Shown here: piece by piece, positions 48,059 to 55,534 of the stretch | Numbering within the stretch: the stretch's first letter is position 1 | How the letters are laid out: each line of letters begins with the position of its first letter | Assembly: GCF_964355755.1 (NCBI RefSeq) | Contig: NC_092675.1 | Location: 19,812,912-19,876,911, forward strand | DNA length: 64,000 nucleotides | From: Antedon mediterranea | Lineage: Eukaryota; Animalia; Echinodermata | Reading direction: 5' to 3' | Program-made: the position numbers and the translations under genes | Notes under the pieces: model-generated | The model's input: only the letters and a program-made list of their open reading frames with translations | What the model was told of the DNA's origin: nothing | The model's database searches: none

Positions 48059-48210
48059 CAAGTGAATGACTCCAGCTGCAGTGAGCATGACCGTTAAGAA
48101 AACAGTCAACATGTTCGTCACTTTGATGGCATTGCTGGTCTTCAAAACTCTCAAAAATTGTAACACTTCAGAAAGCTGCATCAGCCTGAGGGCCCTCAAG
48201 AATCGGAGCC
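48059..48210 (-). CDS. KCNMA1: Slo1 exon, S4-S5
   Basis: cag|GG CTC...TTG|gtaagt; 152 nt; (G)[50 protein letters not shown]. Confidence 0.97.
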
Positions 48211-51879: not shown

Positions 51880-54496
51880 AATTCATAAAATAGTTTAAAA
51901 ACTATTTTATATTCAAATGATTCAAACGTTTTTTCTGGTAATACTGTACAAATTACTGCTATAACTAGGAAATCTACACTGTTGCCAAAATTGTTCTCAA
52001 AATGGGATTAACTAACATACAATTGGGTCATAGGATTACTAACTACAATAGATTAACCAACATGAAGGGATTAATCTACATGAGAAAATTAAACCAAATA
52101 AACCAATGTAAAAATACTTATAGCGTTGAAAATAACTAAATTGGATTAATTCAGATGATGAGATAAACTAAAATTAGGATTAGCCTAAATGTGGATTAGC
52201 TTTGAAATACTAGCTAAAAAGGCAATGAAAGAACTAAATTATGTCAAGTTCACATTTGAATTTTCAATGCCATATGCAATATGGACACATAGTTTGTTTG
52301 TTTGTAATTTATAAGATGGCAGTACACACACAGTAAATAAACACTGACGAAGATCTTAAACGATATGCGCTGTTCTTAACTGACATGCACTCGTGCAATT
52401 GTGATGGTAAATTATTCATACTTTTTTGCAGAAGTTGACAATTGTTTGTTTTTTAAAATTGAAAATAGTTAAAAAGTCTTCACAGCTCTAAAATTTGATG
52501 AGGAATTGGATGTGAAACTAACATTTTTACAAATGTGGTCCAAGGTTACTTGTAGGTTCCAAAGAAAGCTAAAATGCGAACTTGACTTGATGATACAAAC
52601 AACTCTCCCAAAACTGGAAATGGCATTCACTAGCCCCAAATTTTGGGCAAATTGACTACAGTTGAATTTTATTTTGATTCTAAAAAGCTGGTGAGTGTTG
52701 AAATATATGATTTTGAAATAATGATATCTGAGCAATAAAAACTATTAACTTAAAATTAGTATGTCCTATAATAAATTCAATTCGTTTAACTTGATAAAGT
52801 GACCTAAATATACAAATCAAGTTTTAGTTTATTTTATTTATTAGCTTGTTTTTAAAATATTGCCATAAATTAGAATTTACTGATTTACATACTAATCAAA
52901 AACAAAATTGTCTTTAATAATATCAGGTTGAACAATACAACAATTTGCAGTTTGTTCATTTTTCTTACTTAATAAATTATAGACATTGTATAGGCCTACT
53001 AGTGGCTATTTTCACCATAGAGTTATTTACAAGTGTAAATGGTGAATACGCCCATAGAAGTACTACATTAAATCAAGCACTGCAAAGTGGTATCTAAAGT
53101 GTGACAAAATATTATTATGATTTAAAGAACCATTGTACAACGCATACACAATCTGCTATTGTCTTATTCTGTGGAACTAGATTCAGTGTACAACATTCTC
53201 ATAAATGCCATGTCAAGTAATATCCTATTCAGATTTGTATTGCATTTGTGATACACCACTGTACCCTATCCCACATAATTATAAAGCATACCACAGGCAC
53301 TGATTGGACGATAATGTGACCTGTGACATGATTTCGGCCAATTTATTATTAGGAGTAAAATTCGTATCTCATTAGCTACCAAAATACACAGCTCCCAATG
53401 CAATGCTTTATGTCTGAATATGATACTATACATACACATCAAATATGTCGGGAAGAATATGTTTTACAATGCAGGTACAATTTCATGGGCCTTTGCTTAT
53501 ATCGTTAAACTAAACACAATATTTATGTTCATCTGGATTATAGAATGCATAGTGGTCTGTATTAGAGGGTATTCTGATGGTTTGTAAATAGAATGAGACC
53601 TGTTTATGACAAAGAAACACAAAAACCTTATGAATTACGTCTAAATTATCCTACTGCAGTTAATATATTTTGTTACTGCAATATATATTTTGTTTCAATG
53701 TAGAAACAGTCACTGGAATACAGTGTGTTTTGATTACTCATAAATAGCAGAATAGTTTTAAACAGTAAACAAAAAGTAGTTTCTGCAGTAGAATCATTTA
53801 GACAGTCCCCATATACTGTAGGCCTATACACATTTCTAGTAGTAGTATGTTGATTAAAAGCAAAATAGATAGCACTAGATGTCATACTCCATTGCTATCT
53901 ACTTTATTATTTTGGAGTTTAGTATTTTCATACGCAATTACAGAGCAGACATATTTCTTTCCGTTGCAGTAATGTTTTAACCACTTTCAACAAAACTTTG
54001 TCAGATATGTCAACATTTGCATTCGTAGTTAATGCACATTATATTAGTAAACAATTTGTTTATTCTTTGCATAAAAACATAAATGAATTAGTGCCATAGT
54101 TTACAGTCATTAACCTGATCATTATTCCAGCAGTTTGACGCAAGGCAATAGATAATGATATACAATATATATTGATTTGTTTTTAACCAAATGAAGGAAT
54201 TAATGAGTTTAATCCAACTGACTGGTGTTTTGTCATTTCAATGGGGTTGATAATTTCACACTATAAATTGCATAATTAAAAATTAATTTGGAGCAAACAG
54301 TTACTTATTGCAACAAACAGATATATATGTCCACGAAAATTGAAAAAAAAATAATCTTGTAAAGATAATTTAGCAAAGTAAGAATTCACAAGCTAAAAAG
54401 AAAATATAAATGAACGGAAAAAATAATTCTGCAAAAATAAGAAGGGATGACTGTTTTGATAAATAAAAAGCATTGGTTTCTTTAATTATAACTTAC

Positions 54497-54517
54497 CAAT
54501 CCACGCCCTATATTGAC
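54497..54517 (-). CDS. KCNMA1: Candidate 21-nt microexon in the Slo1 S3-S4 linker (GQYRAWI)
   Basis: T-rich tract ...ttttgcaattaattgactcag|GTCAATATAGGGCGTGGATTG|gtaagt. Phase 1/1 matches the host intron and the donor is a consensus match. Confidence 0.7.
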
Positions 54518-55313
54518 CTGAGTCAATTAATTGCAAAATAAAAAAAAAATAAATAGTTGTTTTGTGTTTTTACAACAAAAGGATGAATGTTAAAAAGAAG
54601 CATTCTAATCTACTATAAACAATGAGTCCACAGAGGATAGTTTGTGACAAACCTACTGAAGATATATGAAAAAAGGTCTTATACCACTGAGGCAGACAAT
54701 GTGTGATTCGTCCTCTTTTAATGAGTTATACTATTATATAAAATTACACAAACTAACAGTTGTCATGCCTAGATTACATGGATAAACTGACAATAGCCTT
54801 TCTCTCTCTAAAGAGAGAAATACACAACAGTAAAGCACCCCTATCGGATAATTAGTATTATGTAAAATATCTATTTTAGGTTAAAAAAACTAAAAGTTGG
54901 ACTTTTGCCAAAAGTGTGTGTTTAAAATAAAGGATAATTAAAGATACACATTGTACCATTTTAAAGTTTTAAATAACCAATGCCCGATTTATAATAGTGC
55001 TATCCACTCTCTTTATAAAAAAAATATCTTTCTTCAACTGTATTCCTAATGACAACCCATATTGCCTACAAACAGCTACTATAGGTTTAAAGTAAATTAC
55101 TACCGTATGTTAACAAAAACAAATTTAAAGAGTAATATTATAAAAACAATTTAATAATAATAGTAGAAAAGAAATCGTAAGAACAATATAAAGACTTATT
55201 CCTGCTGGACAAAAAGCATATTCTGTTGTTAATTATACCTTGCTGATATAATAATGGGTTTATTATGATATGAATAAAAATTGTATTGGCTACTTTCTAC
55301 CAATATTTCTTAC

Positions 55314-55425
55314 CTATCCACGTACGTCCCAGAACAATTGACACGAAGATCGGTGGAATCGTGAAGAAGTCTACAATAGAAGCTATGGAGACCCAACACC
55401 AAAGCTTTTCCTGGTTAGCAACAAA
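55314..55425 (-). CDS. KCNMA1: Slo1 exon, S3
   Basis: cag|TTT...ATA G|gtaag; 112 nt; FVANQEKLWCWVSIASIVDFFTIPPIFVSIVLGRTWI(G). Confidence 0.96.
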
Positions 55426-55534
55426 CTGAAATAATAATTTGTACACATTTACGCTATAAATACCAATACAACTATAGGTAAATTTTATTTTGTAGGCAAC
55501 AAAATTAGTATGGTCGACAGTTTCAATTACTTAA

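Follow-up and report, generated by a model that had tools for sequence, protein, structure and literature searches.

A candidate 21-nt microexon between the S3 and S4 exons of the Slo1 gene of the feather star Antedon mediterranea

The voltage-gated calcium channels CaV2.1 and CaV2.2 have 6-nt microexons in their S3-S4 linkers. In NaV channels, the mutually exclusive exons 5N and 5A, located in the domain I S3-S4 linker, illustrate how tandem exon duplication in the S3-S4 region can be a source of splice choice. An optional exon in the domain IV S3-S4 linker of CaV1 is reported to shift both V-half and activation kinetics (PMC5279877). In BK channels, up to ten splice sites have been described, and the inserts named in the accessible part of that account, such as STREX at site C2, are C-terminal (PMC4141542). 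In mouse BK, the S3-S4 loop is reported to consist of only four residues (199-202) and to pack on the S0 flank, where some cross-links shift V50 in either direction (PMC2391248). The adjoining W203 is placed at the outer tip of S4, and W203V is reported to have shifted V-half by ~40-65 mV in labelled constructs (PMC2995153).

The microexons regulated by the eMIC form the second group of described systems relevant to this locus. Targets of the eMIC are reported to possess a long AG-exclusion zone, a long pyrimidine tract, and UGC near the acceptor (PMC8797185), with UGC positioned between the end of the tract and the AG (10.1101/2024.09.17.613571). Ion channels are reported to be enriched among the eMIC targets of the fly (PMC8797185). 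On the microexon programs of echinoderms, little was found in the literature searched.

The window, which is the whole stretch of 64,000 nt that was analyzed, contains the Slo1/KCNMA1 gene of Antedon mediterranea, a crinoid, on the minus strand and has a GC content of ~28%. Twenty exons of the window are exact letter matches to Antedon RefSeq Slo1 isoforms. The translation of the S4 exon is 100% identical to the RefSeq protein "calcium-activated potassium channel subunit alpha-1-like" of both Antedon mediterranea and Anneissia japonica and finds its best solved structures in human Slo1, while the S3 exon agrees with Antedon and not with Anneissia. The host protein (P0002) carries the Pfam domains Ion_trans, BK_channel_a, RCK, and Slowpoke_C, and the S4 motif is present. 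The S3-S4 intron is ~7.1 kb long, and the candidate is found 796 nt past the S3 exon and 6286 nt ahead of the S4 exon, with phase 1 introns on both sides (Table 1).

Table 1. Positions in the window of the candidate microexon, its splice signals, and the neighboring Slo1 features.
Feature	Position	Strand	Basis or remark
Slo1 S3 exon, 112 nt	55314..55425	-	Likely duplication template; joined to S2 and S4 exons in run X1
Candidate acceptor region: CAG (54520-54518), 85-nt AG-free zone, T tract, UGC, TTAAC	54518..54604	-	Unlike the S3 exon
Candidate 21-nt microexon, phase 1/1, would add GQYRAWI	54497..54517	-	Sequence; canonical AG/GT sites
Variant within candidate, third position of Ala codon, synonymous in the predicted frame, CpG site	54504	-	One DNA contig, depth 25
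Candidate donor GTAAGT, probably copied from the S3 donor	54491..54496	-	Score 10.7
Intron flank behind candidate, modestly similar to the S3 donor flank	54350..54490	-	71% identity (62 aligned nt, 70-nt stretch) versus 60 +/- 6% random
Slo1 S4-S5 exon, 152 nt, starts at 48210	48059..48210	-	Residues 199-248 identical in Antedon and Anneissia RefSeq Slo1

At 21 nt, the candidate lies within the microexon size range of 3-30 nt and is bordered by a CAG acceptor and a GTAAGT donor. Its length is a multiple of three, and translation across the S3 exon, the candidate, and the S4 exon meets no stop codon. The donor score falls in the upper part of the 5.4-11.7 range of the gene's 20 real donors, from which the scoring matrix itself was built. 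On the acceptor side, the T tract has 17 T in its best 20 nt, UGC starts at -18 (54535-54533) at the 3′ end of the tract, and a branch-point-like TTAAC is located at -73, with no strong CUAAY branch point upstream of the candidate. The initial annotation had already listed the GTAAGT donor, T tract, UGC, and phase 1/1, and this description was correct, the UGC now being measured at -18.

Several of these features are shared with neural microexons that depend on the eMIC or SRRM3/4 (PMC8797185; 10.1101/2024.09.17.613571; PMC12992808). The candidate does not exceed 30 nt, preserves the reading frame, and resides in an ion-channel gene; it has an AG-free zone of 85 nt and a pyrimidine tract set back from the AG, the gap between them holding UGC, whose background rate is 19%. 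The donor is strong, as it is in mammalian eMIC targets. In contrast to the targets described in these accounts, the candidate has no alternating UCUC (the 90 nt upstream contain neither TCTC nor CTCT), and TTAAC is the only branch-point-like element. Neural regulation would accordingly be a matter of resemblance to eMIC targets and not of membership among them.

The candidate can also be set against the splice variation described in other voltage sensors. As in the CaV1 S3-S4 linkers (domain IV, PMC5279877; CaV1.1 exon 29), an optional exon is predicted here to change the length of the outer voltage-sensor loop. Unlike the CaV linkers, the BK loop has four residues, packs on S0, and is of fixed length in the sequences examined, and the insert repeats the end of the preceding exon. 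In NaV 5N/5A, a whole exon is swapped, whereas the candidate copies only the last ~4 codons and the donor, has no upstream homology, and would be added in series. The Slo1 gene family is known for optional exons such as STREX at C2, and the Antedon gene has several in its C-terminal region; unlike the STREX-type inserts named in the accessible text, the candidate is situated in the S3-S4 loop. The gating of CaV and NaV channels is known to be tuned by splicing of their S3-S4 linkers, and for BK such splicing would apparently be new if the candidate is spliced. Neither a BK S3-S4 insert nor an origin of a microexon by copying of an exon end was found in the literature searched, which was covered by title and the beginning of the abstract and lay mostly outside subscription papers and supplements; microexon catalogues in supplements or in VastDB may bear on this novelty.

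How unusual the splice signals are depends on the measure used. With a matrix in which one training donor was placed 4 nt off, 3 of 5817 sense AG..GT pairs, of which the candidate alone is in frame, attain the candidate's summed donor and acceptor score, and so do two antisense pairs, both in frame. The summed score alone is neither exceptional nor decisive. UGC alone is likewise a weak signal, preceding 251 of 1290 YAG sites (19%). When a YAG, an AG-free stretch of at least 50 nt, at least 14 T in 20 nt, and UGC are combined, 5 of 2303 sense AGs and 0 of 2500 antisense AGs pass, the thresholds having been chosen after the candidate was seen. The candidate alone passes under stricter thresholds, and of the five sense acceptors passing the relaxed ones, no other is followed by a GTRAG donor in the next 51 nt. 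For any given donor, the probability that an acceptor of this kind stands in frame with it is ~0.002-0.04, depending on the threshold. AG-free zones as long as or longer than that of the candidate are present at 6 of the 20 annotated acceptors of the gene. Among the unannotated acceptors of the window, that of the candidate is the most microexon-like. Two weaker frame-preserving AG..GT candidates of 15 and 12 nt (16792-16778 and 49549-49538, minus strand) also have AG-free zones exceeding 50 nt, with scores near the antisense background.

The candidate would be inserted into a part of the protein in which length is tightly held. The BK S3-S4 linker had been taken as very short and conserved by the initial annotation, and a spacing of 13 residues between the S3 TxPP motif and the start of S4 is indeed present in 343 of the 345 measurable Slo1 sequences (24 of the 369 in the set could not be measured), as well as in 12 of 14 further sequences (140 examined, of which 126, mostly single-exon genomic ORFs, did not match the pattern); both sets were ranked by score, which disfavors inserts. 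The four exceptions look like intron read-through. Across 45 aligned Slo1 sequences, W196, G198, L199, and R200 are invariant. Many genomic Slo1 ORFs stop matching right after W-L/I-G, and for this reason the position of the S3-S4 intron appears to be ancient.

In a model of the skip isoform, used for helix boundaries only (mean pLDDT 56.7, ~79 for residues 181-200), the S3 helix spans residues 174-192, the loop 193-196, and the S4 helix 197-216. Since the modelled S4 helix begins at residue 197, the intron would split G198 in the first turn of S4. An arbitrary insert at this point would probably part the Trp (W203 in human numbering) from the S4 arginines, whereas the candidate insert would rebuild the cap, as, according to the model, the repeated R-x-W-I would leave a Trp in place four residues ahead of the first S4 Arg. 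The proposal that R-x-W-I-G is kept in register with S4, made when the locus was first annotated, therefore holds in this model. Inclusion would lengthen the S3-S4 loop from ~4 to 11 residues.

The end of the candidate is similar to the end of the S3 exon. The last 9 nt, which precede one of 29 cryptic GTAAG sites, are identical to the S3 exon end at 8 of 9 positions, a match expected 1.5e-4 times in the S3-S4 intron and ~0.02 times over all exons and sites. No other exon of the gene reaches 8/9 before a cryptic GTAAG. A looser search allowing two mismatches returned two matches, one of them by construction, and 4 of 100 shuffles also reached two. The likeness of the candidate to the S3 end is clearly beyond chance. 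The similarity continues modestly into the intron behind the donor, where the flank gives p values of 0.005-0.015 against random stretches of the window at four lengths. At three of these lengths, the candidate flank fits the S3 donor flank better than the flanks of the 19 other donors; at the remaining length, another donor's flank scored higher than that of S3.

Upstream of the last ~13 nt, no similarity to the S3 side is detected (p 0.46-0.86); over its first 8 nt, the candidate cannot be aligned with S3, and 11 of 21 positions agree in an ungapped comparison overall. A decayed full-length duplicate exon is rejected on this ground, as is a tandem duplicated mutually exclusive exon, for which full-length homology is lacking. 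An alternative donor inside the S3 exon, with which the candidate would substitute for the S3 end, received no support either, although the internal GT window that was scored stood out of register. Given the 8/9 match at the exon end and the modest similarity of the downstream intron, an old partial duplication that took in the exon end, the donor, and some intron, rather than the whole exon, is likely. The initial annotation had noted that the candidate's end mirrors that of the S3 exon and had explained this by partial exon duplication, and both points are supported by these comparisons. The same exon end seems to have been duplicated independently in P0428, a read-through ORF from the genomic DNA of another animal that encodes a Slo-type channel and in which the 3′ part of the S3 exon is present twice, each copy ending like a read-through donor. 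This suggests that such duplications recur.

The last 13 nt differ from S3 at four positions, three of which are synonymous (Arg CGT/AGG, Ile ATA/ATT) and one of which falls at a variable position. These mostly synonymous differences, together with the synonymous variant within the candidate, are weak hints of function, since a synonymous change may have arisen in S3 itself and the variant sits at a CpG. Survival of a 14-nt core, which was chosen for its similarity, has a probability of 0.2 at 20% divergence (not significant) and 0.05 at 30%. Since duplication by itself supplies both the strong donor and the RxWI repeat, neither speaks for use of the exon. The acceptor side lies outside the copied part and thus counts as independent evidence; together with the rarity of such an acceptor, this independence supports reading the candidate as a microexon.

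We lean, with confidence a little better than even, towards a mostly skipped, probably neuron-biased microexon of crinoid Slo1, likely derived from a duplicated S3 end, that would lengthen the S3-S4 loop by seven residues. It is proposed that the last few S3 codons, the donor, and some of the following intron would have been duplicated 0.8 kb downstream, and that the copy may have been put to use through the acceptor upstream, with its long AG-free, T-rich stretch and its UGC. An eMIC-type factor (Srrm234) might then promote inclusion in some neurons. In the resulting protein, the R-x-W-I ending would restore the Trp cap before S4 and shift the added length into the loop, whose growth to 11 residues would bring an additional Arg, Tyr, and Trp close to the S0 flank, and the insert may change gating. 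Even if the exon is real, its effect may be small; deletions of single microexons in zebrafish are reported to give mostly mild phenotypes or none (PMC12626424).

If spliced, the candidate microexon would make a lengthened S3-S4 loop available in a naturally occurring BK channel, with which it could be tested whether the short loop and its packing on S0 limit the movement of the voltage sensor, and it would represent a traceable birth of a microexon, in an echinoderm, through copying of the end of the preceding exon. A more far-reaching form of the proposal, which is tentative and on balance doubtful, is a crinoid splice switch in the BK voltage sensor, in which the copied exon end and donor rebuild the R-x-W-I-G cap and lengthen the loop while neuron-specific inclusion retunes gating. 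If true, this switch would sit in a region otherwise fixed in length from arthropods to vertebrates, and the copying of an exon's end along with the donor would offer a general way for structure-preserving microexons to arise.

The explanation that competes best with a spliced microexon is a silent pseudoexon, to which we assign a substantial though minority likelihood. Here, an old partial duplication would have left the S3 end and the donor, the T-rich, AG-free stretch upstream would have arisen by chance in a genome of 28% GC, and the site would be spliced at noise level or not at all, making it an ordinary decayed duplicate. The isoform evidence is consistent with this explanation, as only the skipped form was assembled. 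In run X1, which is spliced RNA, a contig covering the S3 exon (depth 53.5) has loose ends that exactly match the end of the S2 exon and the start of the S4 exon. X1 thus joins S3 straight to S4, and inclusion is not the main form in this run (reads were compared over 54420-55470 only, and the S4 side was seen as a loose contig end). Cover of the candidate in X1 is almost nil, an intronic X1 contig of depth 3.6 stops 9 nt short of it and was treated as uninformative, and no inclusion contig is among those listed for X1, which is one RNA run represented by contigs only. Because contigs drop rare variants, rare inclusion could escape assembly, and low or cell-restricted inclusion may be compatible with the X1 data. 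Runs X2, X3, and X5 derive from one DNA sample, possibly the source of the window itself, and are therefore not independent support.

The annotated isoforms point the same way. The candidate is found in none of the 30 crinoid RefSeq isoforms seen, comprising 12 from Antedon and 18 of the 21 numbered for Anneissia. A comparably short exon, of 18 nt, was annotated by RefSeq elsewhere in the gene, at 25348-25331; it weighs against the candidate in that an exon this small did not escape the annotation, and for it in that the gene does use a microexon. The Antedon annotation is nonetheless incomplete, since it is without a 138-nt exon at 1611-1474 whose counterpart is carried by Anneissia isoforms. 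Neither the candidate insert nor a doubled R-x-W-I-G within 14 residues was present among 509 fetched proteins, which were the best 120-150 matches of each search (out of 1368, 7997, and 165 for the protein searches and 187 for the representative one), and such top-ranked matches are biased against inserts. Metagenome contigs scanned with a degenerate pattern yielded no match. A silent pseudoexon would furthermore account for a donor and motif repeat that need no selection; the near-fixed loop length suggests that inserts are poorly tolerated, and in P0428 the same exon end is duplicated with no sign of use. Weighing against this explanation are the rarity of the acceptor, which lies outside the duplicated part and has only a small, threshold-dependent chance of standing in frame with the donor, and the mostly synonymous nature of the differences from S3.

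It is improbable that the likeness to S3 is convergent or due to chance, in which case the exon would have arisen de novo from the intron and been shaped by selection for a Trp cap before S4, or by nothing. The flank similarity is modest, at ~2 SD, with another donor's flank ahead at one of the four lengths, and the first 8 nt are unaligned; however, the rarity of the exon-end match in the S3-S4 intron and flank p values that stay low at all four lengths argue for a common origin. A recursive splice point, at which splicing to the CAG would regenerate an AG|GT donor and the 21 nt would be removed again to give the skipped mRNA, is very improbable, for although the candidate starts with GT directly after AG and the skipped product alone has been seen, the score of the regenerated donor is 2.5, lower than that of any of the 20 real donors and well short of the 10.7 of the donor it would compete with, and the site lies 0.8 kb into an intron of only 7.1 kb while recursive splicing is typical of much longer introns.

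Apart from the candidate microexon, several other features were noted in the gene. The exon at 1611-1474 (minus strand) is in frame over its 138 nt, has a TAG acceptor and a GC donor (GCAAGT), and resembles a 45-residue alternative segment of Anneissia Slo1. Alternative exons of 39, 18, and 54 nt (32270-32232, 25348-25331, and 23967-23914, minus strand) serve one site after residue 511, and Antedon isoforms use one or none of them; the 18-nt annotated microexon in this group has a 104-nt AG-free zone and no UGC at -25 to -6. Within the S3-S4 intron, a 377-codon ORF with a reverse transcriptase domain (PF00078, E 7e-13) at 51766-50633 (minus strand) represents a retroelement fragment. Between the S3 exon and the candidate, this intron also has an insertion allele of 14 nt at 54628 and, at 54763-54807, a short dispersed repeat with high-depth matches to many further contigs in each of the four runs.
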